A DNA stretch of 31,063 bases from positions 1 to 31,063 of the IMG/VR virus record IMGVR_UViG_3300031999_000139. One strand, written 5' to 3'. The notes beneath the pieces are model-generated. The model did no database searches and was not told the origin of the DNA. It was given only the letters and a program-made list of their open reading frames with translations. Position 1 is the first letter of the stretch. Every line of letters starts with the position of its first letter. This document shows positions 7,542-31,063 of the stretch, one piece after another. The DNA is from a virus (taxonomy: Duplodnaviria; Caudoviricetes). Position numbers and translations under genes: made by a program.

Positions 7542-7548
7542 GGAAGCC

Positions 7549-8796: not shown

Positions 8797-8958
8797 GTCT
8801 GCTTTGAGCTGCAAAGGTAGCTCTATATCGTGCTTACACCAATGGCATTTACTGTGACACTTGCCGTCTGGCGTGAATTCTACGGGACCATCCGAGCGTA
8901 TGCGTGTACGATCTCCGGTCTTCTGCACGACTTTATTTTTGCAATTTGGACAACGCAC
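8758..8958 (-). CDS. Small zinc-ribbon protein (Mu Com-like spacing)
   Basis: 66 aa with RCPNC...KCHWC. Its GTG start overlaps the upstream TAG stop (TAGTG), consistent with translational coupling. Confidence 0.65.
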   Translation of the reverse strand: MRCPNCKNKVVQKTGDRTRIRSDGPVEFTPDGKCHSKCHWCKHDIELPLQLKADLDIPGERFIIAR

Positions 8959-11900
8959 TAGGACATATCAACAGGGATCACAAAGCGTTGCAAGGGCTGT
9001 GAGTCTAGGAAACGTAGAGCTTTCTCCAAAGACTTCTCCTCGCTTATGGATTCTATCAACCGCCGCATGGCCGCATTGATACGCTTACGCTCCTCACCTT
9101 GAGGGTATATCTGGCATTCCCGCTTGGTGCCGTCTTTCTGCGTCCAGGTTCTTCCCGTGGGATATTTGGACTGAGTGCCAGACACGAGATAGCTGGACTT
9201 TCGCCCCTCCTCGGTCAACGTATCCTCGATGAAAGATTCGAATGCCCTAGCGAACATCTCATGCCCACGAGTCCAATAGTTGTCTTCTGCTTTACTGAAT
9301 GACGAGGCATCCTGATAGAACTCAGAGTGATGGTTCTCAGCCATCGCCCGATGCGCTTCAGTGATCTGCTTATTCTCCGCAGGGGTCGCCCGTCGCCTCT
9401 CTGCGTTCAGTTGTTTAATCAAAGCATTGGCCTCGGTTAGCTTCTTTTGTGCCTCTGGATTCTTGGACCGGATAGCTGCCATCACGTCTGCGTAGGCATC
9501 CTTCACCCGTGGTGAAATTCCCTCGGTAGCCCCATTAGACACCATGCGGCCAGCCTGAGTGCTAGTTGGGTCATGTGACACGGACAACAGATTGTCCATG
9601 GCATGCGCCCATTCGTGCGCGAGGCATCCACCACCCGCAATCTTAGTGATGTTGATGATCGCTTTTCCACTCTCATAATGAGCTGCGAATTTGCCGATAC
9701 CACGAGCCCCGATACCAATAGACAACCGACCATTCAAACTCACACGTTTTACGTCCACGCCCAAAATATCAGCGAGGTCCGAGAAAGCGCCATAAGCACC
9801 CTTGAGGTGCGAGTAAGCGTCCTTGTCGGTCACCCAATGACCAAACTGAACATTCTTTAACCCAAAATCTTTGGCCAGCTCTTGGGGTGTGATGTCCCCC
9901 ACCGGCTTTCCACCTTTTCGATCAATCTCGCCAGGCACGTCACGTTCCCATTTGAAGGGGGCTTCTCTGGGCTTGCTCGCCGTTCTCTTGACGCCTAACC
10001 GCTCGTGCAAAGCCTTGACCCTATCCTCTTGGCTAAGCTTGTCCTGTGCCCATCTCTCAGTGGCGCCAAGGGCATCTCGAAAAACCTTGGGGCCATGATG
10101 CTTAGGAGAAGAGTGCCCCACGATACCCACGAAGGTTTTGCCAAATCCAGCCGCCATGCGGACATAGGCGTTATTTTCGTTCACTTTGGATTCTAGGTTT
10201 GGATCTCTGGCGAATACTGTGATCGCCCCATCATTCCCATAGCTAACATCCAAGTGCTCATCTACTTTCAATGCTCTAGCGATAACCTGATTGAGCGGCA
10301 TAAAACGATACTCATCTCCACCTCGTGCCTCAAAAGCATCTTTAAGGGCACGCACCTTTTCATCTACAGCTTTCCATTCGGGAGAATCGTACTTCCAACC
10401 TTTTCCATACTTGGAATCAGAAATCTCCTCGATCTCGGCCAAAGCCTTTTTTCGCTCAGCGTAAGGCATCGTGAGCTTTTTACCTTGAGACACCAAATAG
10501 TCGTCATAAGCTTGGCCCACTTCATCGGCACTGAGAGTCTTAATACGCCGCTGACCCTGAATTAAGTGGTGCCAGTCCTCAATGAAATCCATGATGTCTT
10601 GTTTAGTTTTGCATTGGTCTATGGACTTGGCGAAAAAGTCCATGCCCTCGAGATAGTAACGCCTAGCCTTCCCTTCGTTTGCGGGTTTTTCAATAATGCA
10701 TTTCTCCATGGCATTCCGTAACAACACTACCTCTGGCTCCATGCCACGATCCAAAAGCTCTTGAGGTTCCCAAGTGGGCATGAGATTTTTCTTGGTAACT
10801 GCCCGCGCTTGATCCTCAGGGTTCATGTGCTCCAAATCAGTAACAGTAAGCGCTTGTGCTTTCTCCCATCGCGTTCCCGTGACATGGGTGCCCACGTCCA
10901 CCGCTAGTTCTTTGCGTCCGGTCTTAGCCTTCGTTGCTGGTTTCGTTTCCACTGTCATTTCCTGCACAGGTTTCGGATGTGCCGCGAAAGCTAAGTCCCG
11001 CTGAGTAGGTTTCTCTGTAACCTTCGCCACCATTTTCGGAGGTTCAGGTTTCTCTGTAACAGCCGGTTTCGTTTCCGGTTCAAAACCTATTTGTTTGGCC
11101 AAACGATCCATCTGCTCTGGCAGTAAAGAGATCCAACGGTTTCGACCTTCAGCCAATTGCAATTTACCGTTAGCCGTCAGTCTCAGGTTTTCAGGATGCC
11201 TGTAAGTCGTAGAGCGCAAATGAGTAGTAAGCGTAATCTCCCCACCGTTTTTGACGTGCTCTAGCACTTTTTCTGAAATCGCTTTATCCCGTATGTTGCG
11301 CTCCTGCTTGTACTGTTCATATCCCGCATCGGATTCCTTTTTTGCCGCATCCATTTTTGCTTCATGCTCGTCATAATCAAACTTTTCAGGCGTAGCGGTC
11401 TTCTCAGGCACCGTCGCGACCAGCTTCGGGCCTTTCTTCTCAATTGCCCGGTCAATGATACGCGCTAAGCGCATTGCCGCTACAGGCACGGCTTCACCGC
11501 TAGCATCTAGCTTGGCCAAATACTCTTCTTGCTGTTTTTTGATACTAGCCAAGTCTTCATGCGACAAATGCGTCAACTCCGTCACCTTATCCTCTAGCTC
11601 CTCTTTGGGAATAAGCGTTGACGGTTGGTTGGGCTCCCAGTGTTGCGTGTGCTGCGGATCTGCCCACAAACCACCTCTAGGACCAACGTAAGGACCACCC
11701 GCCTTTTCGAGCAGATCGAGGTACCGCACCTTACTCGGGATGATCACGAAGATATTGGGCGTCATGGCTTTGTAGATGTCATTGGTTGTTGCATTGAAAG
11801 TACCCTCGTTGCCTACGGCTTTGATCTGATTCGGCGCCCATGCAATCCAAACTTTGTGGGCATGCGTCCCTACGTTCCAGCCGCCCGTGTGCGCTATCCC

Positions 11901-14900
11901 ATCGTAACCGCGCTTCTGCGCCCAATCCTTGAACCCTTGTTTTTCGGTGTTGTAGTAATGCCCATCGGTCATGATGTAATGCACGTCACCCCAAGTGAGA
12001 GCATCCGGACTCGACAAATGCACTATGCCATGGTCTGGCGTACCGTCTTTCTTGGGTTCTGCAAACAGTAAATGCTGTTTGGCTTTCAAGAAATCCTCAT
12101 AAGAGAAATCCTTGCTGTACTCATCATGTCCCATCTTTCGAATACCCGATAGGTCATTGAGGTTCTTAGTGTAGAACGGCACTGAATCCTTATGCTCCCA
12201 CTTCTCTGGTATCGGTTTTTGGTCCCCAAGATATTGTGGGCGGTAGCGGTCCTTTTGGCGCTCCTGCATGTACCCTGCTAAGTCTCGGAAATCCGCTTTC
12301 GAGATAGGCGTATCCATGTCAATCGGTTTGCGCACGTTCAGATAGCACTCAAACACTTGAGGTGGCGTAACCGCTGGTTTGAAATCGCCTACCTTGTCCT
12401 TAGCCAATCGCGTCATGAGCGCTCGCAATCCCGCAGGCGAGCCATGGTGCATGTACTTCTCAGGTTGCCCCTTGGCATCCAAAATAGGACCGCTAGGACT
12501 TCTGTACTCCTGCAAAAACTTAGCGACGTTCACGCCTTGAGGTTCCATCGCTCGTTTGAGCGCAGCCGCCATGTATGATCGGTCTCTATCCGTATAGGCT
12601 TGATCCTCAGCTACAGCCCCATACCCCGGTGTACTCGCGATTACTTTCGTAGCCCATTTAGCCGGTAGGTGCGTTATCTCCTTGCCTGCGGCATCTGTAA
12701 TACCGTGCATCGAATTCCATTTGGCATCGTCACTTTGTTTTTCGGTATACTCTTTCGCGATCCCCGTATCCTCTGTGAAGTAGAACCCCTCACCGAAAAT
12801 GTTGTAGGTACTGACCTTGGCTGGGTCAAATGCCGTGAAGCCCCCTACGGCCGTACCATGATAAACCGGCATAGGTGCCATGTTGTGTTGCTCAGCCGGT
12901 TCACCCTTAGCGTTGACCACTTTGCTGGCATGCTGGGGGTCTTTCTCGTAATCCCCAAACCAACCGCGGAAGGACTTAGCCTTGATCCCCTGCTTTTGGT
13001 AGGCTTCCTTCGGATCGTCTTCCTCAGCCTCGGCATTGAGCCCAAAATCAAACGAGGTATCTAGGTCGCCTTCGATCTGTTCTGGATCAAAGGTTGCGTC
13101 CTCATCTGCTAGCTTAGCAATATGGTCCTGTAGCTTGGCTTCCTCATGCTCCCCACCTAGCTCAGCCGCGTAACTGGCATCTGCCTCAGCTTGCGCCCTC
13201 ACGTTGATCGCTATTTCCGCGTCTTCTGGTAAATGCAGCTTGATCCCGTGGTCTGTGAACCACTCTTGGAAGGTTTGGATCGCTTTCCTACTGTTGGTTC
13301 CATCCCAACGCTTATCCCTGGACACCAAACGGTCCCAAGCTTCTGCCGGCGACGATACTCGCGGATCTGGTGCGGCTTTACCTAACCGTCGCTTAGGCTC
13401 TACCAACCCCAGCGCTTGATTCAAATGGTCCAAGTCACCACCCGTATGCGCGGAAGGTTTCGGGCCCCTACCCGCTTTCCACGCTCGATAAGCGCTATCA
13501 GCTTTGTGGAATTGGTCTAGGAAATTCTCGTTGACCTCATGGGCTCCCTTGAGAGCACTGTAGGCTTGTTCCTTAGACCCAAAAAACGCACCCTTGGCTT
13601 TCCTTGGCCCCTTGACCTTGGGCAGTACCAGCACTGGCGTAGACGCTTTGTTCTCAGCATCGGCCGGCACATGGAAACGGTTATCCGGGTCTTTCAGCGC
13701 CGCTGCGCTCGCCTGTAGCGCTTTGTATTGGGTCGCCAATGACCTATGCAATGCCGCGGCTTCCCTGTGCATATCTGCCTGAGGTACGCCCATATCCGCG
13801 GCTTGCTGGTTTGCTTCGGCCGCTGCCAAATGGTTTTCAACGGAAGGTTCAACGCCAGTGAGTACCGTAAGATTGTTAGCGCGTTTGACTGCTAGGCGTT
13901 CAGGGGTTTTGATCTCGTAACGGTCCTCATGCTCTTTCAATGCGTTGCGTGCGTTCTCTCTCTGTACGTCGTTACCGTGGATCTTCGCCATAGCAAACGT
14001 ATGCTTGAGCCTGGTGTGCGCCTCGTCGATAGCCGCTTTGTGCTCCTCAGAAAACATCTCGTGCAAGTGCTCTTGCTTTACGCTCATCCGCTGGCCGGTC
14101 TCGTCATGTCTTACGGTCGCATAGCCATTCGGATGTACCTTTTCAACTTCGTAGTGCCCAACCTTCCCGTCATGCGTTATCTTGATCTTCTCACCTTCGG
14201 CTACAGGCTTGCCCATGTACTTGTTGGTGACTTTGTAGATGTAGTACCAACGCGGGCTTGCCTTGCCCGATGGGTAGCGCCGTAGGTACTTGTGCATAGC
14301 CCCTTTGATTAGGTCCACGGCACGATCAAACTCGAAAGCATCCGTAAGCCTACCGGACCAACTCATGCACAGGTCAAAGTCATCTGCGGAGATCACATGC
14401 AATTCATCGTGCATGCTTTTCGAGAAATCGGGTTCCCAAGGTTTCCTATGAGCTAACATTTCTGAAGGTGCTCCCTGATAAGAATTGTAGTGGGCTTCAC
14501 GCTTAAAGCGATCCCACAACAAATCCTCTGCGGCTTTCAATGCCTGTCTAGCAACCGTTTCTCTTGGGGTTTTCAGGTCTTTTGGAAAAGGCCAACTCTC
14601 TGGGATCTTCGCTTCTTTAACCTGTGTTGCTATTTTATCCGTTAGCCATTTCCGCATCACGGCTTTGACTTCGTACTCCGCTACACCAGACGAATGCTCG
14701 CCCACGTTCACCGCGTTATCCGTGCCCTTGAATCCCCACTTCAACCGTGGGTGTTGCACTTCCTTACGTGTATCCCCCGCGTAGCTCACATGATGATCAT
14801 GTCCAATAAAATACGAGGCTTCAGGAAACTTAGCTTCCACAACCAACTTTTCTTTGATCTGGGCTACCCAATCATCTAGTTTCTTGCGGGCTTCACCCAA

Positions 14901-15311
14901 CACTTTTTGCTTGGCTTCTTTCTCCGCTTGCTTAATCGAATCGTCGTCTAGGTTATGCGTGCCCCCTGCCATGCCTGGTCCACAACCGCTACCTACGCAT
15001 GCTTGCTTCCCTGTCTTTTGGTGTTCCATTTTGTAGACAATGGCATGCTCTTTACCACAACGATCACAAGTGGCACCCTCACCAGTCGCTAGGGCTATGC
15101 GCTTGCCCGTGTACCAGTCGATAGGTCGCAGATCCTTTACGCTATGGATCTTCCATTCCGGTTCTTTCGGAGCCTCATGCTTAGGTGTTTCATCCGCGTA
15201 CTCATAATCGTAGCCGCCACCGGCTTTCGCTTTACGGCTAAGGTACTTGTGGCCCGGTCGCTCGGCACCCCATGTGCTCTTTCTCAAATTCTCTGGAATG
15301 ACGTAACGCAT
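8958..15311 (-). CDS. Large polyvalent protein: Zn-binding module, ART-PolyVal-like ADP-ribosyltransferase and LPD1 (zincin-like) region
   Basis: 2117 aa. ART motifs FRGWFGD..SKVV, VYHGT, GFYFT, YLNVRKP, GYDG and NQIKAVGNEGTF (about 11770-12980). LPD1-type motifs VQFGHWV, AFSDLADILG, GARG, AAHYE, LAHEWAHAMD, EMFARAFE and YPQGEER (about 9040-9900). CDRC...CVGSGC near the N-terminus. Confidence 0.85.
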   Translation of the reverse strand: MRYVIPENLRKSTWGAERPGHKYLSRKAKAGGGYDYEYADETPKHEAPKEPEWKIHSVKDLRPIDWYTGKRIALATGEGATCDRCGKEHAIVYKMEHQKTGKQACVGSGCGPGMAGGTHNLDDDSIKQAEKEAKQKVLGEARKKLDDWVAQIKEKLVVEAKFPEASYFIGHDHHVSYAGDTRKEVQHPRLKWGFKGTDNAVNVGEHSSGVAEYEVKAVMRKWLTDKIATQVKEAKIPESWPFPKDLKTPRETVARQALKAAEDLLWDRFKREAHYNSYQGAPSEMLAHRKPWEPDFSKSMHDELHVISADDFDLCMSWSGRLTDAFEFDRAVDLIKGAMHKYLRRYPSGKASPRWYYIYKVTNKYMGKPVAEGEKIKITHDGKVGHYEVEKVHPNGYATVRHDETGQRMSVKQEHLHEMFSEEHKAAIDEAHTRLKHTFAMAKIHGNDVQRENARNALKEHEDRYEIKTPERLAVKRANNLTVLTGVEPSVENHLAAAEANQQAADMGVPQADMHREAAALHRSLATQYKALQASAAALKDPDNRFHVPADAENKASTPVLVLPKVKGPRKAKGAFFGSKEQAYSALKGAHEVNENFLDQFHKADSAYRAWKAGRGPKPSAHTGGDLDHLNQALGLVEPKRRLGKAAPDPRVSSPAEAWDRLVSRDKRWDGTNSRKAIQTFQEWFTDHGIKLHLPEDAEIAINVRAQAEADASYAAELGGEHEEAKLQDHIAKLADEDATFDPEQIEGDLDTSFDFGLNAEAEEDDPKEAYQKQGIKAKSFRGWFGDYEKDPQHASKVVNAKGEPAEQHNMAPMPVYHGTAVGGFTAFDPAKVSTYNIFGEGFYFTEDTGIAKEYTEKQSDDAKWNSMHGITDAAGKEITHLPAKWATKVIASTPGYGAVAEDQAYTDRDRSYMAAALKRAMEPQGVNVAKFLQEYRSPSGPILDAKGQPEKYMHHGSPAGLRALMTRLAKDKVGDFKPAVTPPQVFECYLNVRKPIDMDTPISKADFRDLAGYMQERQKDRYRPQYLGDQKPIPEKWEHKDSVPFYTKNLNDLSGIRKMGHDEYSKDFSYEDFLKAKQHLLFAEPKKDGTPDHGIVHLSSPDALTWGDVHYIMTDGHYYNTEKQGFKDWAQKRGYDGIAHTGGWNVGTHAHKVWIAWAPNQIKAVGNEGTFNATTNDIYKAMTPNIFVIIPSKVRYLDLLEKAGGPYVGPRGGLWADPQHTQHWEPNQPSTLIPKEELEDKVTELTHLSHEDLASIKKQQEEYLAKLDASGEAVPVAAMRLARIIDRAIEKKGPKLVATVPEKTATPEKFDYDEHEAKMDAAKKESDAGYEQYKQERNIRDKAISEKVLEHVKNGGEITLTTHLRSTTYRHPENLRLTANGKLQLAEGRNRWISLLPEQMDRLAKQIGFEPETKPAVTEKPEPPKMVAKVTEKPTQRDLAFAAHPKPVQEMTVETKPATKAKTGRKELAVDVGTHVTGTRWEKAQALTVTDLEHMNPEDQARAVTKKNLMPTWEPQELLDRGMEPEVVLLRNAMEKCIIEKPANEGKARRYYLEGMDFFAKSIDQCKTKQDIMDFIEDWHHLIQGQRRIKTLSADEVGQAYDDYLVSQGKKLTMPYAERKKALAEIEEISDSKYGKGWKYDSPEWKAVDEKVRALKDAFEARGGDEYRFMPLNQVIARALKVDEHLDVSYGNDGAITVFARDPNLESKVNENNAYVRMAAGFGKTFVGIVGHSSPKHHGPKVFRDALGATERWAQDKLSQEDRVKALHERLGVKRTASKPREAPFKWERDVPGEIDRKGGKPVGDITPQELAKDFGLKNVQFGHWVTDKDAYSHLKGAYGAFSDLADILGVDVKRVSLNGRLSIGIGARGIGKFAAHYESGKAIINITKIAGGGCLAHEWAHAMDNLLSVSHDPTSTQAGRMVSNGATEGISPRVKDAYADVMAAIRSKNPEAQKKLTEANALIKQLNAERRRATPAENKQITEAHRAMAENHHSEFYQDASSFSKAEDNYWTRGHEMFARAFESFIEDTLTEEGRKSSYLVSGTQSKYPTGRTWTQKDGTKRECQIYPQGEERKRINAAMRRLIESISEEKSLEKALRFLDSQPLQRFVIPVDMS

Positions 15312-15314
15312 TGC

Positions 15315-17096: not shown

Positions 17097-17115
17097 GGCC
17101 GCATCTTACACGGAT

Positions 17116-20100
17116 TTAACGTGAACGCACCATGCCCAACAGTTCATTCACGCTCTTACCGTACAGCACACCATTGCGCTCAAAGTCCCTAGCCTCATAG
17201 CCACGCTTGATCAACGCTTCCTTCATCCTTCGATAGGCAATGCTCTCACGGTCAATGATGTCCTGCACAGGGTCTACGGGTAACGCTTTGATCAAGGGTA
17301 GCTGACCTGGCAAAGGCTTGTTTTCAGGTGCGGGCTTCTGAGGTACGGGTTTAGGCGGTACGGCGAACATCTCTCGCTGTTTCGGCTTACCGGCGACCAC
17401 CTTTTGTGGATTGAATAGCCCACGTTGCCCAGGCAAAGGCGCTTCCTCTGGGTTCTGTTTCACTTTGACCGGCGTACGGATTTTGTGCTTGGGCTTCTCT
17501 GTACTTGTAGGTGTAAGGGTCAATCTATCCTTGGGCTTTGTTCCTGCGACCGTATTCCAAAAGGCTGTTTCCTCATCATGTTGTTTTTTGATTTTGGCCA
17601 ACGCTACATCTAGGCCAATGCCCTTAGGAATTGTGGCTTTCGCTTCAGCTTCCAATTTCTTGGTAGCCATGCCCAAATGGTGCTTCGCGAAGTCGTGTTT
17701 CTTGTCCCGCATCCACTCTAGTGATCTCGCTTGATAATGCTCCCAATGTCTTTGCCCTTCGGAAAAGTCGCGTCTAACGAATTCTTGCCCATGCTTCTGA
17801 TACAAGAAACGCAAGCGTGCCATATCGTCAGAAGCGCCTGAATCCCTATTCTTAGGATCGCCGGCATTCTTAGCCGCCTTACCCACGTCAAACATCACCA
17901 CGTTTCCGTTGGCATCTAGGCCGGCTTGAGGCTCATCGTTCAGCGCATACCCCTTTTTGTGCATCCCAATTAGGGAATCCTGCACAGCGTCTAATTGCTC
18001 ACGGGTAAATTTCTCTGGGATCTCTACCCAAGGCTTGATCTGGAATCCCTTATCCCCGTGTTTTACAAATTCGGATCTCTGTATTCCAGGCACACCGGCA
18101 TCGGCTAGCTCGTTACCGATAGCCACTTGCTTTTGAAGCATCGTAGCCGCTTCCTCTGGACTACGGTGCCCCGGATTCTCTGGCTGGTAGGGAACGGTCG
18201 TGGACACCTTCACAACCTTATCCCCGTGCTTAAAGGCCATGCCGTCATCGCCTTTGCCTAAAAACTTGGCCTTTCCAGAAGTTACCGCGTCAATGTCTGG
18301 GTTGCCGCTCGGTGGGAGATCAACCCTACCAGCCAAATCATTCTGGAAATGTTTGAGGCTCGCTTTGGGCATCCAAGGTCCGTAATCAGAACCCTCATGC
18401 CGGCCAACCTGTACCTTATCCCCTTCAGTTTTGAGCACTCTGTATGTGCTCTTATCCTCTTCCCTTCCAGAAATGGCCGGATGCACCGTTACGGCTAGGG
18501 TATCCCCTACTTTGGGTTCTCCCTGTACGCCAGCACCCGTAGGCTGTTTCAATCCCTCGATAACCCGATTGACTGCCGCGTTTACATCGTAATGTGCTGG
18601 GCCTTGGCGTTCCAGGGCTTGGCGTATTGTGACTTCTGCCGTTTTCGGATCTTCCGCTAACAGTTCTCTGTACTCGTTAGCGTACTCGTGCATTTGATCC
18701 AAAGCCCTAGCTACCCGCTGTTCCGTTGCTCGGTCATTCAGAATCGGAGTCAGTTCATAGCTGGCAATCTCGTCTGGCGTTAAAGGACGGTCATAAACAG
18801 CTTGACCATGCCGAAAGGCTTCGTGGGGTTCGTGGGTTGCCCCTTTGGGCACATTCGCGTGACTCACCGGGCGTAAATGCGCTCCATAGCGAAAGACACC
18901 GTTATGCGAGGCATCCCCAGATTCTTCCCAAGAAATCGTATGTGCGGCATCCGCCCACTTTCCACCCCGCGGACCAATGAAAGGGCCACCTTGCGCTTTG
19001 GAAAGGCTATCCAAAGATTTCTCTACGCCTTGTTGGGGAGCTGCGCTTGCTGCGCCGCTGCTTTCTTCGCTTCCCGCTTCGCTCGTGCCTCGTGGTACAT
19101 CTTCACCCAAGTCTCTACCAACATCGAATACGGAATAGCCGGCTTCCCTGAGTCTTTCAATCTCTCTGTGACCGTCTTCTGCTTCCCAGGTGACTGGTGT
19201 TTGGACATCGCCTTGCTCCTCTTTTGCTTTGGGAAGGTTGACCCTATCTGCTTCATCCAACGTCCTTCCTACCCCATGCGCAAAATGTAATCCGTTCTGA
19301 ATAACCACTTTACCATTAGGCATATCTTTAATCAAGATGGTCTTGTCTGTCAAGTCTTTCAGATCGGAAAACATTTCTTGGAGCTTTTCAGGATCTTCAT
19401 GGTGGGCCATGAATTCATCGCCATGAGGATGAGCGGCATGTACGGAATGACCATCCACCTTGGTCAACAATTCGCTGAATTTCCGCAAGATCGAATCTGT
19501 ATCCTTTTTGCCAAACGCATCGTTGAATGCTTTGACGCCACGCAAATCAGCCGAGGCTACGTAATGACCGGGGTTCAATGCCAACGATTTCTTGAACCCG
19601 TCATCGCTCAAAAGCCCGCTGCTTTTCTCTTGGTGGATTGTCTGGAAAGCTTCTTCGGGATCAAGCTTGGCGAATTGCGCGTGATGCTCAGTAGTTAATT
19701 CTACACCTTTGCCTGGGCCCATTGACTGCATCCGTGCGGCTATGGGTTGCATAGCTTCATGGGCTCGTGCCTTATCGGTACCCAAAGCCGCGGGGTGTTG
19801 CATACGGTGTCCCAAACGTCCCGCTTCTACCTCAGCATCCTTGTGCGCTTTATGCGCGTTGCCTAGTTTTTCCAGAGTAGCTGCGGTATCTGGACCGTGC
19901 TTTACGGCTGTAGCCGTCACTTTGACCCTACCACTAGGGTCAATCGCTAGGCTCATACGCTCAGCGATTTGATCTGCATGCGCTTGGTCCCGTACGTCGC
20001 CTTCGATATCGCCAGCCCTCTTTATCCCATCTGGAATATGCTGGCTCAGCTCATTGCCCATAAGCCTGAGAGCGCCATCCGGGGCCTCGTGGCCAAATTT

Positions 20101-21492
20101 ATCGTTGAACGCTTTGAACCCTTCCATGCTGAAACGTGCGGTCATCGGACGTTGGGGATCTCGCTGGCGTAGCTCAGCTCCCCGCTCGTTCAGCAAACCT
20201 GTATTACGGTCCTTGAAATAGGCGTTTCGCTGTTCATCAGGGGATAACTGCCCGTGTTGCTCACGTAGCTTACCCAATGACGCGGGTTCTGAGGCTACCT
20301 CTGGGTTTTGCTCTATTGGTTCCGATTTCGTTTCCGGAATTACCTTTGGGATTCGCACATCTTTCCAGGTCTGACCCTCTTTCAGATCCCCTTTCATTTT
20401 TGCGCTAAACGCTAATTCCTTACGCTCACTTTCCGCTTGTTTGGCATCCTGCCCTAGTTTGTCGATTGCTGTATTTAGGTAACCCATAGCGGTAGGAAGA
20501 TCGATCCCGCCCTCGTTATATGCATAAGTAATATCCAAATTCAGATCGAAGAAATCTTCTTTGGGATCTAAATTCGCGATACGTTCTTTGAGCCTGTTTA
20601 CAAGTACCTCCCCTTTAGGATTCACAAACCCAAGGTCAACCATCTTCGGTGGGCCCCCACCCTCCGGATGTATGAAACTGTCTTCCTTGAACTCTGGAGA
20701 CCCCCAACCTTTCTTTTCCAATTCCTTAGCGATAGTATCATATGCCTCACGCAAACCCTGAGAACCCCACGTACCCGATCTACCCTGTATGAATTCTCTG
20801 GTAAGCACATCATGTTGCGGATCGTATTTGTGTACCTTGGCTACGTACTTTTCTGCCGGTGTCCCCATAAGCGCTTGGTTAGCTTCTGCCTCATTGCGGA
20901 GCTTTTGCATGTCACCCGGCCGGCGATTACGGCTAACCTTATGAGCCCTGCCCTGTTCATCCGCAAACACCATACCTTCCCCACCTGAACCCACGTAACG
21001 CAAACTCGGAGCATGGGCTCCAGCCGCAGCCGCACGCATAGATCCCTGTACCACTTGAGGTTGAACAGCCGCATGTGCGTCTTGTTGGATCTGTTCATGG
21101 GGCACCGCGTCTTCCCAATGGATCGTGTGCTCTGGGTCTGCCCACTTGCCCCCTCTGGGTCCGATGTAAGGACCACCCGCTTTATTCAAATCGTCTGGCG
21201 TTACGGACTTCGTAATCGGTTGCCCTACGCTCGTATTCTCTACCGCTTCGGCCAACACCTTGGCGATGTCCAGGTGGATGCGCTCTAGGGTCTTTTCGTA
21301 CTCGTCTTTCGTGATCTTGTGGATGTCCCGCAGCGCTTTGTACTTCAACGCTGGTTCTTTCTCGGGCAACGCTTTTTCCAATGTTTCGGCTAGTTCTGGG
21401 CTGACTGGGTACAGCTCGTGGGCCAGAGCCTTGATTAGCTCCTCGCCCTTTTCGCTCAGTTCTTGCGGAGTAGCTTCTAGCCGTACACGCAT
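17116..21492 (-). CDS. Large polyvalent protein: kinase-like domain, tandem GGDEF-like domains, DarA_C-like domain, second kinase-like domain
   Basis: 1458 aa. VGSGGEGMVF..HKVS..VDLG; DRNTGLLNERG..FKAFNDKFGH and ADLRGVKAFNDAFG..HGDEF; YGAHLRP..VPKG..HGQAVYDRPLTPDEIASYELTP; FLGKGDDGMAF..VVKVS..FDVG. Confidence 0.8.
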   Translation of the reverse strand: MRVRLEATPQELSEKGEELIKALAHELYPVSPELAETLEKALPEKEPALKYKALRDIHKITKDEYEKTLERIHLDIAKVLAEAVENTSVGQPITKSVTPDDLNKAGGPYIGPRGGKWADPEHTIHWEDAVPHEQIQQDAHAAVQPQVVQGSMRAAAAGAHAPSLRYVGSGGEGMVFADEQGRAHKVSRNRRPGDMQKLRNEAEANQALMGTPAEKYVAKVHKYDPQHDVLTREFIQGRSGTWGSQGLREAYDTIAKELEKKGWGSPEFKEDSFIHPEGGGPPKMVDLGFVNPKGEVLVNRLKERIANLDPKEDFFDLNLDITYAYNEGGIDLPTAMGYLNTAIDKLGQDAKQAESERKELAFSAKMKGDLKEGQTWKDVRIPKVIPETKSEPIEQNPEVASEPASLGKLREQHGQLSPDEQRNAYFKDRNTGLLNERGAELRQRDPQRPMTARFSMEGFKAFNDKFGHEAPDGALRLMGNELSQHIPDGIKRAGDIEGDVRDQAHADQIAERMSLAIDPSGRVKVTATAVKHGPDTAATLEKLGNAHKAHKDAEVEAGRLGHRMQHPAALGTDKARAHEAMQPIAARMQSMGPGKGVELTTEHHAQFAKLDPEEAFQTIHQEKSSGLLSDDGFKKSLALNPGHYVASADLRGVKAFNDAFGKKDTDSILRKFSELLTKVDGHSVHAAHPHGDEFMAHHEDPEKLQEMFSDLKDLTDKTILIKDMPNGKVVIQNGLHFAHGVGRTLDEADRVNLPKAKEEQGDVQTPVTWEAEDGHREIERLREAGYSVFDVGRDLGEDVPRGTSEAGSEESSGAASAAPQQGVEKSLDSLSKAQGGPFIGPRGGKWADAAHTISWEESGDASHNGVFRYGAHLRPVSHANVPKGATHEPHEAFRHGQAVYDRPLTPDEIASYELTPILNDRATEQRVARALDQMHEYANEYRELLAEDPKTAEVTIRQALERQGPAHYDVNAAVNRVIEGLKQPTGAGVQGEPKVGDTLAVTVHPAISGREEDKSTYRVLKTEGDKVQVGRHEGSDYGPWMPKASLKHFQNDLAGRVDLPPSGNPDIDAVTSGKAKFLGKGDDGMAFKHGDKVVKVSTTVPYQPENPGHRSPEEAATMLQKQVAIGNELADAGVPGIQRSEFVKHGDKGFQIKPWVEIPEKFTREQLDAVQDSLIGMHKKGYALNDEPQAGLDANGNVVMFDVGKAAKNAGDPKNRDSGASDDMARLRFLYQKHGQEFVRRDFSEGQRHWEHYQARSLEWMRDKKHDFAKHHLGMATKKLEAEAKATIPKGIGLDVALAKIKKQHDEETAFWNTVAGTKPKDRLTLTPTSTEKPKHKIRTPVKVKQNPEEAPLPGQRGLFNPQKVVAGKPKQREMFAVPPKPVPQKPAPENKPLPGQLPLIKALPVDPVQDIIDRESIAYRRMKEALIKRGYEARDFERNGVLYGKSVNELLGMVRSR

Positions 21493-21502
21493 TGGGAAAC
21501 CC

Positions 21503-21889
21503 CTACGCTATGGGATCTCCCCAGCAAACGTACACGCCGCTAATATCTGTTTCGCCTTCGTTCTTTACAGAGACTTCTGTAATCTCACACTCCAGAAACA
21601 GCTTAGCCTTACCCGTATCCGATGCCTTGCGCATTTGAATCGCATCCGTAGATCCGTTCAAATACACCTTCGCATCCCCGCTCAGTTCCAGGTACAACCC
21701 CCTAGCTATCGTCACGTCACCAAAGGAAAGCGATTCCTGACTGGTAGCCGAAACCAGCAATACAGAGTTGACCTGACTAGCAAAGGTATCGGTTTGGATC
21801 GTGGCCGCGGTTTGGTCATCCTTGAACAACGCACGCTTCATGTTCGTATCGAGCGCAAGCTGTACTTGGACCGTGTGTTTCAAGCGCAT
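21503..21889 (-). CDS. Hypothetical beta-rich protein downstream of portal
   Basis: 128-aa ATG ORF with AGGAG RBS, filling the gap between portal and the 1458-aa gene. Confidence 0.7.
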   Translation of the reverse strand: MRLKHTVQVQLALDTNMKRALFKDDQTAATIQTDTFASQVNSVLLVSATSQESLSFGDVTIARGLYLELSGDAKVYLNGSTDAIQMRKASDTGKAKLFLECEITEVSVKNEGETDISGVYVCWGDPIA

Positions 21890-21899
21890 ATTCTAGCTC

Positions 21900-23681: not shown

Positions 23682-23685
23682 GGGT

Positions 23686-26600
23686 TTACCTCTTGCGAAA
23701 TACTACCGGGCTCGGGCCTTCAATCCGCACGTCTTCCTCTACGGGTCGCGGTTTCAGGATAGGGTCACACGCGCTCTTTTCGAGCCTAATGGCATCCCCA
23801 CCACCCATGTACGCGCTGCGTGGGAGCATGCGGTTGACTACCGTACCTTCCCCACAACCTGGACAAGCCGTCAACATCGCAGAGTACCTACACCCGCAAC
23901 CCTCTGACTTGCAAAGGACGTTTTGCCTAAGCACTGAACCTGGGAGCGCCAACGTAGGACTTGCCCCATGGTAGAAATCGGACTTCAACAGCGCTTCGGC
24001 CTCGGCATCCGTATTCCCGTGAATGCTGGCCATCGAAAGAGGATGCACAAAACCAACATGCACGTCATTGCTCTTTTGGAGCTTCGCAATGTGCTGCGCC
24101 GTTTCCTTCGCGACCATGGCGCGTTGTGACGCTGGCGTGAGGCTCTTGTAGCCCTCTGGGATCTCATCTTCCAAAGCCGCGGTGCCTGGGGTCATCTGCT
24201 TAGCCGGGTCACGGTCATCACCCAAGATTTCCTGTTCACCCTGGTTTACGCCTGTAAGCTGCCCCTTAGCGTCCTGGCCTTCACCCGCAGCCGACCCACC
24301 GTTACCCGTGGGAGTAGGTGTCTCAGTCAGATCCCCACCGTTGGCAGATCCGCCCAACGTGGTTTCAACAGGCTTATCAATTTCATCCCAGTCGTTTTGA
24401 TCTGGCATACCGTCTGCCTTGTTCAGATAGTCACCCAACTCACCTAGTCCTGATTTCCGCATAGCACATTTCTCCATTCGCTTGGCTTTGCCAGCCATGG
24501 CGTAAATACGTTCTTCCAAATCATCTACCTTCATGCCCAGCTTACCAGCTAGCGCATGTACTTGGGTATCGTCGGGATGCGGATCTCGTTGCAACAAAGC
24601 ATTGATCTCCGCAGTTACAGACTTCTCCATCTTCGCCAGCTTCGCGTAGTAGTGGCCATCTTCGGTCAAGTGGTCCATGGCTATCTCTTGCGCCACTTTC
24701 TTGCTCTTGGTGTGCTCCATTTCGACCTTGATACCTTGCGCCAGCGCTTTGGGGTCAAAGTCACTGGGGCTCTTGCCTGACGCCAAACCACCTGGGATCT
24801 GCTCAACACTCTTGCGCAAGTAGGCACCTAGCTCCGAGATCCCGTCGCTCTTTTTGAGGGGATTGCCCTGTGCGTCGTACCCCATACCCGCCATGAACTT
24901 TTCAGCACCCTTTTGGCTACTGAAAACCTTAACCGTTGGTCCATTTACAGCAACGAAATTATCCCCCTGTTTACGGATACCCCGTTCCTGAGATTCGCTA
25001 CCCGAGGTGCTAGTCTTGATCTTCTGCACCCCGATAGTGGTTTCCGGTTTCTTGGAGAATAGATCGCCTTGAACTGGCTTGGCGGGTTTTTCTTTTTCGG
25101 GTTCAGGCTTCTTATAGGTATTTACCCGATAATGCTGACCCGCAGTCGGATACCTGAAAATGGGTTGTCCTTCAGGATGCTTGCTCCAATCTTGCTGCTC
25201 TACCAATTCCTGTAACGCCTTCACCTTAGCTGTCTGGCGTTTGATAGCGTCATGATCTGGCTCATGCCCAGCCGTTGTCATTTCGTGGTGTTTCGCGTCC
25301 ATTTTCATGGACTCATCAAACGTCTTATGTGCTTCCCCCCAAAGGTCATCCAATTTCTCAGGATAAGGGATACCCGCTCTTTCAGACCAGTCCTTTTTCT
25401 CTGGTGAAGCCTTCGGATGCGTAGGGGCATCCTCTTTCACCGGGGTCTGGAATCCGGAAATCCCCTCCATTTTTTGACGTGGTGTAACAACGTTCCCCAT
25501 ATGCAAACGCACCGCTTGTGCCGCCATATAGCTCAAAGGCTTGTGCTCTGGCTCAGCACCTTGCTCGCCGCCATCTTTCCATTTTGCGTAGGCTTGTGCG
25601 TAAGCTTTCTTGGCTGGGTTCCTGATAGCTCGGATGTACTTCTGCACGTCCGGATGACTGAGGTACTTACCACCTTCAGGCGCTTTCTTTTCGCCGGTTG
25701 GTTTCAAACCCTTTTCTTGATTCGCGATAGCCGCTTCTAACCCATGAATGGTGTCAATGATCAAAGGGATTGAATACTTAGGCAAAGTAGGATCGTGTCG
25801 ATGCCCATGTTGCAAAGCAGCCAAATGCTGCTTGTATCTTGCTAACGCTGCTTTGTTCTCAGACAAAGCCTTAGCCCTTTCAGCGTCTGTAGGACCGCCG
25901 CCTTGTCCCGCTTCCCTATGCATCCTTTCCTTTGCGGTCTCTTGCTTCTCCCCAAACTTCGGCTTTTGCGCAATACCCTTATCGTTGATCTTGTAACCCA
26001 TCTCTGTAAGCGCTTGGGTTACTTTCTCATGCGATTGCCCGCTTTGCTCTGTGAGGTGCGCGACGTTTACGGGTTTCGTTATATCGTCGGGTAGGAAGTC
26101 GCGGACCTCCCATTTAGGAGATTCTTGCTTACCCGCCTGCCGATCAAACGTCACTTGCCCATGCGGATGTTCTGGATGGGGTTCAATCTCGTAACCCAAA
26201 TCCGCGATAGCCGCCTTAGTGCGGTCTACGTTCATTCCCGTATCAGATGCGAGCTGCCCCACCTTTTGCGTATGTACTCCACCAGCCCTCAGCGTTTTCA
26301 GGTGTCCTACAAGTTTATGGGTATCCGGATGTACTTGTTTGCCTGCCGGTTTCTTAGCCCCCGGCTCCCTTTGCGCGTCCATCCCCATACGGATAGCTTC
26401 AGGCTCAGTATGCGCAGAAAGGGTTTTGAATTTCCCATCCTCTTGCGCCACGTTAACCATGTAGAGATCTGGGTAAAGCTTGTTGATAGTTAGGTGCTCA
26501 TTGACGTTCGCTACTTCACCCGTGATCCCTTTTCTGTACTTCAAACTTTCGCCTTGTTTGGGTTTCTTACCCCTAGAAACTCCCGTCGCTTCCTCAGGCA

Positions 26601-27933
26601 ATTCCACAGGAGTATGAATCGTCCCCCCTCGCTGTTTCATACGTTCAGCTACAGTAGCCACGCTATGCGTTCCCAAAGATCCACTACCCGCCGCACCCTC
26701 TTTCTCCGGATCTGGTTCTGTAGCGTGCCATGCTCCGTTTTCCTGTCGTGTGTAATGGACTTCCCCACCTTGCGAATGCGGAGTTACTACTTTGCTACCC
26801 GCGGGCAATTTGTCCAAATGTTCCGCTTTGAAATCGTGACCTTGTGCGTAAACGTACTGATATCTTCCTGGGATACCCGTTCTCCGAATGTACTTATGCC
26901 CCGTGCGTTCCCCACCCGTACCCGCTTTCTCCAAGTAATCTCCCAAAGCGTCCAACCCGCTCATGCTTTTCTGGAATTGTGGCGGTACTGGTTTCTTCGG
27001 AGGCACGCCCGGTTGACCCGCAGGAGGCATCGCTTGTGCCGGCATCCCCGGTTTCGCCAATTGCGGTTCGTGAGGTGGCATCATGCCCTGTGCTGGCTTA
27101 CCCGGTTGCATAGGTGGCTTGCCCACCATACCCCTAGCCGTAGGTGCCCCTTCATTCGGCGGTAGGTTCTCAGGTGCCTGGTTAGGCGCAGACGCTGATA
27201 CCGGCGCACCCTGACCCATCGGAGGCTTAACCCCTGGCATACCTGGCTTACCCATAGCTCCCTGCATCTGTGCCGCATTAGGAGCCCCTTGAAGAGGCAT
27301 ACCGGGTTGCATAGGCATCGGAGGCTTATTGTCTCCCAATTGCGCTCCTAGGGCCTGTTCTGGGCCAACCATGGGGGGTTTAGGGGGCATCCCCGGCTGC
27401 ATACCCGGTTGCGCTCCAGGTTGTGGTTGCCCACCCTTCATTTCGACTTGTTTGGACTTCCAATGCTCATGCGCGTTCTCACCCTGACCCGCTGCCTCAG
27501 CATGCGCTTGGTGACGTGTAGCTGCGCTTTGCTGGGCCTCTGGGCCCAGCTTTGGGTTTTGTGCATGCTGCGCAAAGTATTGGCTGATTTCCTGATGTCC
27601 TTGGGCAGTCAAGTACCCACTGGCGTCAATCATGCCGGCGTCAAGCAATTCCTTTTGCGTACCAGGATGCAAGGACCGAAAGCCCTTTTCACCCAAGTGG
27701 CTAATCTTGGACAACGCGGCATGGAGGTTCGCTTTGTTCTCATGGATCGAAGGCGGCGGTAGCTTTGTGATCTGGCCCCCACCCTTTGCTTTCGCATCCT
27801 CAGCCCCTGGACCCGACAATTCAGCGCCGGCATCGTCACTGGGCCCGTCGTCTTCATCGTCGCTGCCTTTCATAGGCAACGAGGGGTTCGCTTTGCTCAA
27901 GTATTCTTCAACCAAATCGTCTGTGCTTTTCAT
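23686..27933 (-). CDS. Large modular head-associated protein with a P/G/Q/M-rich region, a DUF5661-like domain and a C-terminal Cys cluster
   Basis: Start moved to ATG at 27933 (MKSTDDL; GGAG RBS; just after the upstream stop), giving 1415 aa. GIKVEMEHT..IAMDHLTE..YYAKL is DUF5661-like; CKSEGCGC..CPGC lies near the C-terminus. Confidence 0.8.
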   Translation of the reverse strand: MKSTDDLVEEYLSKANPSLPMKGSDDEDDGPSDDAGAELSGPGAEDAKAKGGGQITKLPPPSIHENKANLHAALSKISHLGEKGFRSLHPGTQKELLDAGMIDASGYLTAQGHQEISQYFAQHAQNPKLGPEAQQSAATRHQAHAEAAGQGENAHEHWKSKQVEMKGGQPQPGAQPGMQPGMPPKPPMVGPEQALGAQLGDNKPPMPMQPGMPLQGAPNAAQMQGAMGKPGMPGVKPPMGQGAPVSASAPNQAPENLPPNEGAPTARGMVGKPPMQPGKPAQGMMPPHEPQLAKPGMPAQAMPPAGQPGVPPKKPVPPQFQKSMSGLDALGDYLEKAGTGGERTGHKYIRRTGIPGRYQYVYAQGHDFKAEHLDKLPAGSKVVTPHSQGGEVHYTRQENGAWHATEPDPEKEGAAGSGSLGTHSVATVAERMKQRGGTIHTPVELPEEATGVSRGKKPKQGESLKYRKGITGEVANVNEHLTINKLYPDLYMVNVAQEDGKFKTLSAHTEPEAIRMGMDAQREPGAKKPAGKQVHPDTHKLVGHLKTLRAGGVHTQKVGQLASDTGMNVDRTKAAIADLGYEIEPHPEHPHGQVTFDRQAGKQESPKWEVRDFLPDDITKPVNVAHLTEQSGQSHEKVTQALTEMGYKINDKGIAQKPKFGEKQETAKERMHREAGQGGGPTDAERAKALSENKAALARYKQHLAALQHGHRHDPTLPKYSIPLIIDTIHGLEAAIANQEKGLKPTGEKKAPEGGKYLSHPDVQKYIRAIRNPAKKAYAQAYAKWKDGGEQGAEPEHKPLSYMAAQAVRLHMGNVVTPRQKMEGISGFQTPVKEDAPTHPKASPEKKDWSERAGIPYPEKLDDLWGEAHKTFDESMKMDAKHHEMTTAGHEPDHDAIKRQTAKVKALQELVEQQDWSKHPEGQPIFRYPTAGQHYRVNTYKKPEPEKEKPAKPVQGDLFSKKPETTIGVQKIKTSTSGSESQERGIRKQGDNFVAVNGPTVKVFSSQKGAEKFMAGMGYDAQGNPLKKSDGISELGAYLRKSVEQIPGGLASGKSPSDFDPKALAQGIKVEMEHTKSKKVAQEIAMDHLTEDGHYYAKLAKMEKSVTAEINALLQRDPHPDDTQVHALAGKLGMKVDDLEERIYAMAGKAKRMEKCAMRKSGLGELGDYLNKADGMPDQNDWDEIDKPVETTLGGSANGGDLTETPTPTGNGGSAAGEGQDAKGQLTGVNQGEQEILGDDRDPAKQMTPGTAALEDEIPEGYKSLTPASQRAMVAKETAQHIAKLQKSNDVHVGFVHPLSMASIHGNTDAEAEALLKSDFYHGASPTLALPGSVLRQNVLCKSEGCGCRYSAMLTACPGCGEGTVVNRMLPRSAYMGGGDAIRLEKSACDPILKPRPVEEDVRIEGPSPVVFRKR

Positions 27934-27935
27934 CG

Positions 27936-28913
27936 TCAAATACTCCGGAGCTGCAAAAGCCCTTTTTTGAACAGCATCGAACCACCTTGAGCGCACGCCT
28001 TGTTGAGCGCTTGGGCTACCAACGGTTGGCCGTAAGTCTTCACCACATCGGACAACTTGTCTAGTGACAGACCCTCTGGCCCTGCATTGCCCAAACGATG
28101 CGTCACTACCCGGATAACCCTGGCTAGACGCTCCTCAGGATCACCCTGCTCAAACTTATCGACGATAGCGCCTGGTTTTTCCGATTTACTCACTGTGTTT
28201 ATTTTTCCAGTAGGCGATACCCATTGTTCTGCAAAATGCTTTTGACGGGCTTGCTCTTCCGAAGATTCCGGAGATACGCCCTGTTGACTTTCGTAAATGG
28301 GTTTACCACCCATTGCATGCCCCACTACCTTGCCACCCCTACTTCCCTCACCTTCACCCTTGCGCAATTCATCCACGGTAACTACCTGCACCATGCTCTT
28401 GCGCATGTCTCTGTAATAGCTCAGCGCACGAGAGAACAACGCACGCCGTAACTCTGGGGCCATACGGTCTGACAGCATCTTAGTTACCAGTTCATGCCTG
28501 ACCGTCAATTCGTTACGTGCGCTAAGCGCTTTGCCCAACAACCCTACCCATTCATTTTGCTTTGCACGATCCAAGCCCAGACCGTCAACTACGGATGCGG
28601 GACTCATGTACCTACCCGTGGGTTCGAACATCTGCGCCAACGTGGGCTCGCTCGGCATTTGTTTGGTCTGGCGTAACAGGTCAATGTTTTCTCGCGACGG
28701 TACCTGACCCGGCCATTTCGTGAGTATGAATTGCGGGCTCAGCGCACAGGTAGTGCTCTTGCTCATTTTTTCTGGCGCACTATCGCCGCTCATTTTTTGG
28801 TAGATGCCCATGATGTACGCCCAGTCCTTAGCTCGACCTTGCTTAGCTGCCAGCGCTTTCGCTTTATTCCAATGCCCCTCATCTTTCGCGTTTTTAACTA
28901 CCCCGACTGGCAT
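27936..28913 (-). CDS. Hypothetical modular head-associated protein
   Basis: 325 aa with AGGAG RBS; small helical N-terminal module (WNKAKALAAKQG..WAYIMGIYQKM); several hydrophobic-x-K-[S/A/G] motifs; GEGSRGGKVVGH..GGKPIY segment. Confidence 0.75.
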   Translation of the reverse strand: MPVGVVKNAKDEGHWNKAKALAAKQGRAKDWAYIMGIYQKMSGDSAPEKMSKSTTCALSPQFILTKWPGQVPSRENIDLLRQTKQMPSEPTLAQMFEPTGRYMSPASVVDGLGLDRAKQNEWVGLLGKALSARNELTVRHELVTKMLSDRMAPELRRALFSRALSYYRDMRKSMVQVVTVDELRKGEGEGSRGGKVVGHAMGGKPIYESQQGVSPESSEEQARQKHFAEQWVSPTGKINTVSKSEKPGAIVDKFEQGDPEERLARVIRVVTHRLGNAGPEGLSLDKLSDVVKTYGQPLVAQALNKACAQGGSMLFKKGLLQLRSI

Positions 28914-28992: not shown

Positions 28993-29232
28993 CTACCAGT
29001 AATTTCGGATTTTGGAAGCGCTAGGAGCGCCCCCAAGCAACCGTCTGTTCATTTCTTGTTCATCCATATTCGCATCGTCTACCAAGTTGCCCTCGATTAT
29101 CGACGAATCCCCTAACTCTGGTTCTCCCATTATCTCTGTATCCACCAAATCGCCTTTTGCTTTTGGTGGTTCAGGTACTATCCCCAAAGCCTCATTGATC
29201 CGTTGCTCGATAGTTGTTTCTGGCGCTTCAGG
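28993..29232 (-). other. Open -1 frame, probably the displaced C-terminal tail of the terminase
   Basis: The frame is open from 29253 to the stop at 28993 and reads PEAPETTIEQRINEALGIVPEPP...GGAPSASKIRNYW; it has only a TTG or late ATG start of its own. Confidence 0.55.
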
Positions 29233-30857: not shown

Positions 30858-31063
30858 AGGAGGTACCCTGCCACGATCTGACAGTATTATCCAGAGACAA
30901 GTTAGGAATGAAACTGTTCCCAACCCGCTTGATAGTCAATGTGGGTTGGCGTCATGCCGCTGCGCTTGAACGGAGGGGGCCTACCAGCTCGCCTAACAGG
31001 TAACGGCGTAGTCTGTTGACCGCAATGACAAGTACGTTTCCCCGATGGGTAAGTATGGACTAC

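Follow-up and report, generated by a model that had tools for sequence, protein, structure and literature searches.

In phage T4 the head serine protease gp21 acts at a short three-residue motif, dices the scaffold, trims the capsid protein and removes the leaders, known as capsid-targeting sequences, from IPI-III and Alt, which are ejected later; Alt, an ART, is cut at both ends (PMC9026906; this and the other papers given by PMC number are cited from partial text). In phages SPN3US and phiKZ a single protease, gp245 and gp175 respectively, acts on many internal head proteins and often cuts a propeptide in several places; the mapped cuts take off terminal propeptides at A/S-x-E, and release of several enzymes from one chain is unreported in those texts (PMC10052503, PMC9026906). 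Here we analyse the virus record IMGVR_UViG_3300031999_000139 over its whole 31 kb (31,063 nt, hereafter the window), which comes from an uncultured phage and holds an SPO1-like head module. Five genes of this module encode carrier proteins with conserved ends and swappable payload blocks, fenced by the motif hydrophobic-x-Lys↓Ser/Ala/Gly (the arrow marks the predicted cut); the chains are likely to be loaded into the head, cut there and ejected into the host. Most payload blocks begin with a short tag.

Sequence comparison gives good support to the view that this system would work like T4 cargo processing, on proteins of the polyvalent class. As in T4, one head serine protease with a short three-residue motif would dice the scaffold, trim the capsid and remove leaders from cargo. 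Unlike T4, whose protease cuts after Glu (L/I-x-E or A/S-x-E), cutting is predicted after Lys; several enzymes are joined in one cargo chain, which has double sites inside it and not only in terminal propeptides; and the products would keep an N-terminal tag, whereas the known T4 signal is the part removed.

The phage-type polyvalent proteins (Iyer et al. 2017, PMC5512222) share ART-PolyVal, LPD1, MPTase, InPase, GGDEF, DarA_C, DdrB-ParB and RelA domains with the proteins described here, and for them the same head-gene context, a proposed injection and an analogy with polyproteins were put forward. The carriers likewise hold several biochemically unrelated domains per chain and are encoded among virion and packaging genes. 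That paper credits embedded metallopeptidases with release, whereas here the evidence favours cutting in trans by the head protease. A cut motif, a tag or a clamp motif is not mentioned in the available text, where the words 'linker' and 'clamp' have 0 occurrences; the supplements of that paper could list tags or junctions. Phage P1 has head-packaged antirestriction proteins, the Dar proteins, with an N-terminal targeting signal, traits that the carriers of the window would share, and a DarA_C domain that is also present in the window; the Dar proteins are separate genes, and a repeated grammar of sites and tags is undescribed in the part of PMC9024508 available. Head-packaged effectors appear without this grammar in the partial texts of PMC9024508, PMC7824862 and PMC9503650, and a literature search, which left most subscription papers outside, returned nothing describing internal head-protease sites with tags. 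Finally, Herelleviridae (SPO1, A511, SP-10, Nachito; PDB 9vel, 5lii, 9row) have a homologous capsid protein (about 37% identity), protease (29-37%) and portal, the motif in the scaffold and a K↓S or K↓A maturation site, but the cultured members looked at have no multi-block tagged polyproteins between portal and protease.

On the minus strand the genes follow in the order terminase, 325-aa carrier, 1415-aa carrier, portal, 128-aa gene, 1458-aa carrier, MuF carrier, 2117-aa carrier and a 66-aa gene; then come an IbrAB pair on the plus strand and, on the minus strand again, protease, scaffold and capsid. The five carrier genes, for which an earlier note on this DNA had estimated about 18 kb of polyproteins, sum to 17.8 kb. 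They are not contiguous, the portal and 128-aa genes lying among them and the 66-aa gene and IbrAB before the protease.

29178..30923, minus strand: terminase large subunit (TerL), negative control with the motif at background
27936..28913, minus strand: 325-aa carrier; homologues of 217-961 aa
23686..27996, minus strand: 1415-aa carrier, with ATG at 27933 (1436 aa from GTG); homologues of 404-1715 aa
21900..23681, minus strand: portal protein, with candidate sites near both ends
21503..21889, minus strand: 128-aa gene directly after the portal, conserved, of no known family
17116..21492, minus strand: 1458-aa carrier; homologues of 96-2658 aa
15315..17096, minus strand: MuF-domain carrier; homologues of 305-1446 aa
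8958..15311, minus strand: 2117-aa polyprotein with three tagged pieces and two spacers
5114..6178, minus strand: head-maturation serine protease (phrog_1028, E 3e-26)
4141..5097, minus strand: scaffold protein
2636..4087, minus strand: major capsid protein, with an LNK↓A site (Lys codon 3989-3991)

The protease shares 37% of its residues with SPO1 gp3.2 and 29% with its A511 counterpart, and H64 and S130 (in GFSVEG) are invariant in 26 relatives; the Peptidase_S78 match was weak and present in 2/26 proteases only, and our search found no solved structure of the protease. Its own candidate sites, FEK↓A and LNK↓S, stand before and after the protease domain. The neighbouring scaffold and capsid genes carry the same motif, within the scaffold and at the end of the capsid propeptide. 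With expected counts computed from the composition of each protein, [LIVMF]xK[SAG] was found 14 times in the scaffold for 1.8 expected, 7 times in the protease (1.8) and 6 times in the capsid (1.7); the SPO1 scaffold has 11 (1.1). In the record of A511 cps the mature peptide is annotated from Ser24, after Lys23, and the 439-aa chain of PDB 9row, a staphylococcal phage capsid, begins at the Ser that follows VVK of the 463-aa chain 5lii. Both positions align with LNK↓A of the window capsid, which, like the saturation of the scaffold, bears out what the earlier note had read there. Such a site is present, under a lenient pattern, in 30/30 capsid N-termini from loci with tags, and every tag locus that has a capsid gene is of the Lys type. 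In 29 scaffolds, Lys at the residue before the cut (P1) was observed 360 times for 46.5 expected, compared with 32 for 26.1 for Arg and 62 for 60.3 for Glu; among the 11 P1 residues tested, Lys alone was enriched. The motif is thus likely to be the site of an SPO1-type head protease.

In the carriers, the motif was in excess in the 1458-aa protein (14 versus 6.1 expected, p=0.0025), the 1415/1436-aa protein (12 versus 6.3, p=0.02) and the 325-aa protein (7 versus 1.8, p=0.0025), but not overall in the 2117-aa (12 versus 9.2, p=0.23) and MuF (3 versus 2.0, p=0.32) proteins. Controls gave 1/1.6 for TerL, 2/1.5 for IbrA, 2/1.0 for IbrB and 3/1.6 for the portal, where K35 is kept in 19/30 homologues. 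The predicted enrichment over TerL, IbrA and IbrB was therefore obtained for three carriers and not for the other two, where overall density fails as a per-protein test, and positional tests were used instead: the signal is positional. At the scale of genomes, the head clusters of three relatives contained 58, 61 and 53 copies of [LIVMF]xK[SA] for 18.4, 27.6 and 21.5 expected (2.2-3.2 times), compared with 48/44.3, 42/42.9 and 44/38.4 (1.0-1.1 times) in the remaining genome, counting mechanical open reading frames (ORFs) on the coding strand, piecewise when they crossed the borders of a stretch. In 56 of 206 database proteins scanned with Pfam, domain interiors held 41 motifs versus 53 expected and the sequence outside domains 572 versus 323.

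The domains named in the earlier note passed Pfam cut-offs for ART-PolyVal, LPD1, InPase, GGDEF (two stretches), DarA_C and DUF5661; the MuF match was weak (E 0.15), and both kinase-like regions of the 1458-aa protein lacked a Pfam match. Kinase 2 has kinase clusters as its nearest named ESM Atlas neighbours (0.92), and kinase 1 aligns weakly to it (hhalign probability 31%); the Kinase-PolyVal domain of P0007, tried as a relative, showed no similarity to them. The 'Zn module' of the same note has its four Cys, and no family was found for it. A HEXXH metallopeptidase in the 2117-aa protein had been missed.

The 2117-aa protein can be laid out as an 11-aa leader, a tagged Cys module (12-298), a spacer, a tagged ART-PolyVal piece (337-1181), a second spacer, a tagged metallopeptidase-LPD1 piece (1204-2097) and a 20-aa tail. 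In the 1458-aa carrier, a conserved leader (K40, K95, K104) precedes piece 105-825 (tag, kinase-like region and two GGDEF stretches, with no junction site between kinase 1 and these in the window), a spacer, piece 833-1402 (tag, DarA_C, kinase-like region and a QxxLF cluster) and a conserved tail. The MuF carrier consists of MuF (1-304), LVK↓S, an untagged InPase, LQK↓S and a tail. The 1415-aa carrier comprises a Pro/Gln-rich piece, a payload of 692 aa with an HKY tag, DUF5661 and, at the C-terminus, a conserved region that bears Cys residues and four more sites, and the 325-aa carrier a conserved core with sites K52, K172, K185 and K243 and one GSRGG-tagged insert. Every motif quoted in the earlier note is present at the place given for it.

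28239..28355, minus strand: GSRGG-type tag directly after LRK↓G, 325-aa carrier
26926..26967, minus strand: double-site spacer (SMSGLDALGDYLEK), 1415-aa carrier
26812..26922, minus strand: HKY-type tag after LEK↓A, 1415-aa carrier
24811-24849 and 24418-24453, minus strand: spacers similar to SMSGLDALGDYLEK, 1415-aa carrier
21073..21177, minus strand: GPRGG-type tag after LNK↓A, 1458-aa carrier
18883..18993, minus strand: GPRGG-type tag after VEK↓S..LSK↓A, 1458-aa carrier
15177..15275, minus strand: HKY-type tag after LRK↓S, 2117-aa protein
14304..14417, minus strand: acidic spacer 299-336, 2117-aa protein
14187..14300, minus strand: HKY-type tag after LIK↓G, 2117-aa protein
11703..11768, minus strand: spacer 1182-1203 with an F-V-I-I-P strand motif, 2117-aa protein
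11592..11699, minus strand: GPRGG-type tag after LEK↓A, 2117-aa protein
9603..9617, minus strand: HEWAH zincin metallopeptidase motif, third block of the 2117-aa protein

The three tag patterns, HKY, GPRGG and GSRGG, were defined without the site. In the window, 7/7 tags have a site at most 14 residues upstream (background 0.11). In the first loci 61/69 distinct tags follow a site, and the 8 misses have one 23-30 residues upstream; further locus scans gave 149/165 and 62/66, the latter reaching capsids about 30% identical. With site-free profiles, GPRGG matched 778 protein clusters at 50% identity, the top 150 of which were analysed, and HKY matched 57 proteins. In the resulting set of 206 proteins, which includes the 1415-aa protein of the window and some proteins of loci already seen, a site lies at most 12 residues upstream of 295/324 GPRGG and 87/88 HKY copies (background 9.5%), once copies less than 16 residues from the N-terminus (34 GPRGG, 8 HKY) were set aside; for GSRGG the count was 7/10. 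Lys at P1 is kept before 372/405 tags, and internal GPRGG copies have a mean column identity of 63%. A second site lies within 45 residues of 173/343 internal tags (background 26%), and Leu, Phe, Ile, Asp, Glu and Ser abound in the double-site spacers.

The sequence pattern suggests that the tags are of a hairpin type. They do not form the one shared family that had been supposed: HKY is unrelated to the other two, which share a GxRGG core only. A resemblance to the PBCV basic adaptor domain was not upheld (0/7 tags matched in Pfam at E up to 1), and a GSRGG profile had no meaningful match in the PDB. The description of the products as individually tagged effectors was also too strong. The predicted tagged pieces measure 287-894 aa, apart from one of 58 aa, and are often multi-domain, while no tag of the three types is present on the InPase, DUF5661 and Pro-rich pieces. 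F-V-I-P, considered as a family-wide signal, occurred 3 times versus 0.6 expected in the window and close relatives but 26 versus 23.5 in the 206 proteins, and would at most be lineage-specific.

Untagged domains are fenced as well. InPase has a site before it in 67/80 cases and after it in 85/90, and DUF5661 in 26/37 and 33/40 (backgrounds 0.10-0.27). A site is found at the end of ART in 13/14 and of LPD1 in 29/30, compared with 0/14 and 2/31 at interior control positions. Boundary sites of the 2117-aa protein are conserved in homologues (K11 3/3, K298 4/6, K336 34/34, K1181 17/24, K1203 23/31, K2097 27/27), whereas interior matches are mostly lost (K603 1/18, K645 0/18, K1005 0/17, K1076 4/17, K1562 6/21, K2007 4/22), which agrees with the expectation that the motif marks boundaries rather than interiors.

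The expected module shuffling at the sites of homologous loci was also seen, as swaps, additions and reorderings, in L001, L002, L004, L006, L007, P0065 and P0092. L004 has an SNF2 helicase in place of the Cys module of the window, joined via LFKA-spacer-LIKA, and L002, P0038 and P0040 have no Cys module and start at spacer 299-336, which is the N-terminal leader of these stand-alone relatives. In L001 the ART block is retained, followed directly after LEKA by another tag and payload. L006 has extra tagged blocks in the 325-aa and 1415-aa carriers, and L007 a 325-aa carrier without insert. P0065 has the blocks of the 1458-aa protein in reversed order, with kinase 1 and GGDEF tagged separately. 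Carrier ends are conserved while total lengths vary widely. These comparisons strongly support a reading of the motif as a mark of module junctions at which modules are shuffled. The conserved ends, the second sites near half of the internal tags and the make-up of the spacers point to a cassette, leader-K↓tag-payload-K↓tail, as the probable unit; a spacer would then be the tail of one cassette fused to the leader of the next.

Some payloads carry motifs resembling those that bind the sliding clamp, for which Q-L-x-L-F is a published consensus (PMC4549789). In the 206 database proteins QLxLF was found 33 times versus 1.3 expected, in 49 tag-bearing proteins of the loci 11 times versus 0.4, and in non-head ORFs 2 times versus 0.8; ten other first residues and the reversed motif stayed at background. 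All 68 looser copies fall in long pieces and 0 in short ones, 51/68 within 50-60 aa of the end of a piece. The flanks are enriched in Pro (2.2 times) and Lys (1.45 times) and depleted in hydrophobics, a composition suggesting that the motifs sit in a flexible segment. No beta clamp was encoded in any of the five near-complete relatives (0/5), as searched with the N-terminal Pfam domain only. The window contributes two such features, the first recognisable in 5/6 aligned homologues.

17290..17427, minus strand: QRGLF, QREMF and QLPLI in a Pro/Lys-rich stretch ending at LIK↓A, 1458-aa carrier
25057..25071, minus strand: QGDLF, clamp-binding-like, 1415-aa carrier

Several points weigh against this interpretation. 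Packaging, cutting and ejection are inferred, and the grammar is known here from comparison of sequences. Conserved matches also occur inside folds, namely LGKG (31/31) and VGKA (23/31) in the kinase and LDKG (10/10) in TerL, so that the motif alone cannot decide a cut, and cut selection must depend on accessibility and not on sequence alone. The A511 site, A-L-K↓S, has Ala at P3 and falls outside the motif class, making the [LIVMF] of the earlier note slightly narrow, and the A511 scaffold has 2 matches versus 1.2 expected; specificity thus varies within the lineage. No adjacent site accompanies 29/324 GPRGG tags. A site and tag separate 27/36 pairs of different domains versus 0/11 halves of one enzyme, but this last control is weak, its gaps being short (36-455 aa). 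Homologues share ancestry (83 portals form 60 clusters at 70% identity and 14 at 50%), and the counts measure breadth rather than independent trials. The clamp-like motifs of the window itself are non-canonical (QRGLF, QREMF, QGDLF, QLPLI), with 0 strict QLxLF. Among described systems, about 80% of SPN3US head proteins are uncut and the cuts mapped in the available text concern terminal propeptides only (PMC10052503), and several polyvalent-type proteins were reported to be packaged or transferred uncut (PMC5512222, partial text).

It could be that the head protease cuts the chains but that what results is internal core or scaffold material, which stays in the head or leaves it without reaching the host. 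The 1415-aa protein is indeed diced like a scaffold (12 sites, C-terminal pieces of 12-115 aa, a Pro/Gln-rich piece), and carrier homologues without payload exist; in the 1415-aa and 325-aa carriers, the small pieces may well be of this nature. As a general account it is unlikely, as the payload enzymes (ART, kinase, GGDEF, helicase, RelA, topoisomerase, Zeta kinase, Nudix) need cytoplasmic substrates, and the enriched clamp-type motifs are confined to long pieces.

Somewhat less probable still is that internal motifs are fusion relics or serve for loading only, so that only the terminal leaders come off and the chain itself remains uncut. Known head proteases do take terminal propeptides off cargo, and the spacers are demonstrably leaders of stand-alone genes. 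However, internal junction sites are conserved where interior matches drift, the P1 Lys is retained before most tags, a site also follows each payload, and a site exposed inside the prohead would meet the protease anyway.

Cutting by an embedded zincin, as proposed for polyvalent proteins in the available text of PMC5512222, appears improbable. HEWAH makes the metallopeptidase of the 2117-aa protein a candidate cutter or a candidate payload; this is one of five carriers (1/5), although HEXXH occurs in the head clusters of 3/3 relatives and in 63/206 database proteins. The other 143/206 tag-bearing proteins have no HEXXH, and the scaffolds of SPO1, SP-10, Nachito and LysYB1 are full of the hydrophobic-x-Lys motif, which also stands at capsid maturation sites, in stretches without an annotated polyprotein of this kind. 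A reading of the motif as a DNA signal for recombination between cassettes, or as a chance by-product of Lys/Ala-rich linkers, is very improbable: homology breakpoints do cluster near sites and the three GPRGG tags of the window share 62-77% DNA identity, but site codons vary synonymously, with all synonymous codon types used, which largely refutes it, the enrichment is Lys-specific and survives composition correction, and the window contains no other long repeat family.

With fair confidence, we favour cutting and delivery by the following route. Chains would be loaded whole into the prohead, where leaders, spacers and tails (hydrophobic, rich in Leu, Phe, Asp and Glu) would bind the core and later be removed, like the T4 capsid-targeting sequence. 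During maturation the head protease would cut after the junction lysines, along with scaffold and capsid, a step that we hold to be very probable. Pieces of 290-890 aa with the tag at their new N-terminus would result and the small peptides would be lost; given cutting, it is quite probable that the tagged large pieces, kept in the head, are ejected with the DNA. In the cell they may act against defence or redirect host functions, and some may dock on the host sliding clamp via QxxLF. The role of the tag is the weakest step. We lean slightly towards a handle for retention and ejection after cutting, since internal copies stay conserved though one loading event per chain would suffice; a loading signal seems a less likely role. 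Cassettes would evolve as units, their fusion creating the double sites. Overall, the earlier interpretation is partly supported by these sequence comparisons.

Cultured phages gave only chance-level matches to the GPRGG, HKY or GSRGG tags, and a match in Pag-Yong1 proved upon inspection to contain no tag. In MA9V-3, a cultured phage of Chryseobacterium, head genes with a single module (L254:3379-7933, 14001-16313; proteins XQU63102, XQU63100 and XQU63098) are built as leader-K↓tag with a fourth tag type, of which 3 copies match the pattern, each 5-7 residues past a site, and a similar one occurs in XQU63102; its fused protease-scaffold gene holds 21 motifs versus 2.6 expected. In phage DAC19 (L094:14503-16161) the gene after MuF starts with a 20-aa leader ending in VNK↓A, followed by a candidate tag. 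Bacillus phage Nachito and Lysinibacillus phage LysYB1 have an ART-like gene beside MuF (L251:10181-12781, L253:10666-13284) that begins with a hairpin-like tag, without leader or site, and the SNF2 helicase of LysYB1 (L253:1465-4050) begins with a similar one.

SPO1-like head genes are present at 70/70 tag loci, and 57 ORFs homologous to the 128-aa gene were found among the fetched loci. The five near-complete relatives measure 97-110 kb each, the window being a 31-kb fragment; in one of them the tail is contractile and the polymerase belongs to family A. Six tag loci come from cellular assemblies, two of them labelled Myxococcales, a weak hint at the host. One locus (L159) has the entire head-cargo module inside a 3.5-Mb chromosome with that label, beside a run of N, possibly as a prophage. 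Payloads of relatives (P0058, P0064, P0080, P0124 and others) include type IB topoisomerase, SAM lyase, TMEM65-like, Zeta kinase, RelA/SpoT, Nudix and PAPS-reductase-like domains. Inteins interrupt the MuF domain in G002 and G005, and a homing-endonuclease insert a cargo helicase (L081:7213-11553, L090:8053-10833, L081:2-5371).

The IbrB/IbrA pair (ParB-like and PAPS-reductase-like; window 6408-8796, plus strand), between cargo and protease genes, differs in GC content (0.455 versus 0.52) and strand and is inserted; it is missing at this position in L001, L004 and L010, with one other copy among the fetched loci. The same spot in L002 (7254-9667) holds two ORFs in which DNA-methyltransferase-like motifs can be read, suggesting an insertion hot spot. 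The 66-aa Cys-rich gene (8758-8958, minus strand), upstream of the protease, has a C-terminal strand resembling F-V-I-P, and similar CPxC ORFs stand at the same place in G001 and G005. G001 also encodes an RNA polymerase alpha C-terminal-like protein and an Hfq-like protein (L075:9306-9917, L076:13555-14124).

For polyvalent proteins, the question of how they are resolved into enzymes receives a testable answer, the head protease acting at a readable motif rather than embedded peptidases, and the tags become candidates for the signal by which head proteins are chosen to be ejected. Giant unannotated phage proteins can be parsed into single payloads by the rule of site plus tag, which flags them as likely injected anti-defence factors, over a reach that for the GPRGG tag alone extends to the 778 clusters given above. 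If the tags are ejection handles, they would be tools for protein delivery into bacteria. More tentatively, and with somewhat less than even confidence, we propose that a large uncultured SPO1-like clade may possess a programmable delivery code, in which leaders load, the protease cuts, tags eject and clamp motifs place the products on the replisome. Such a code, if true, would be the counterpart in double-stranded DNA phages of viral polyprotein processing, with separate signals to load, cut, eject and localise, portable to any payload.

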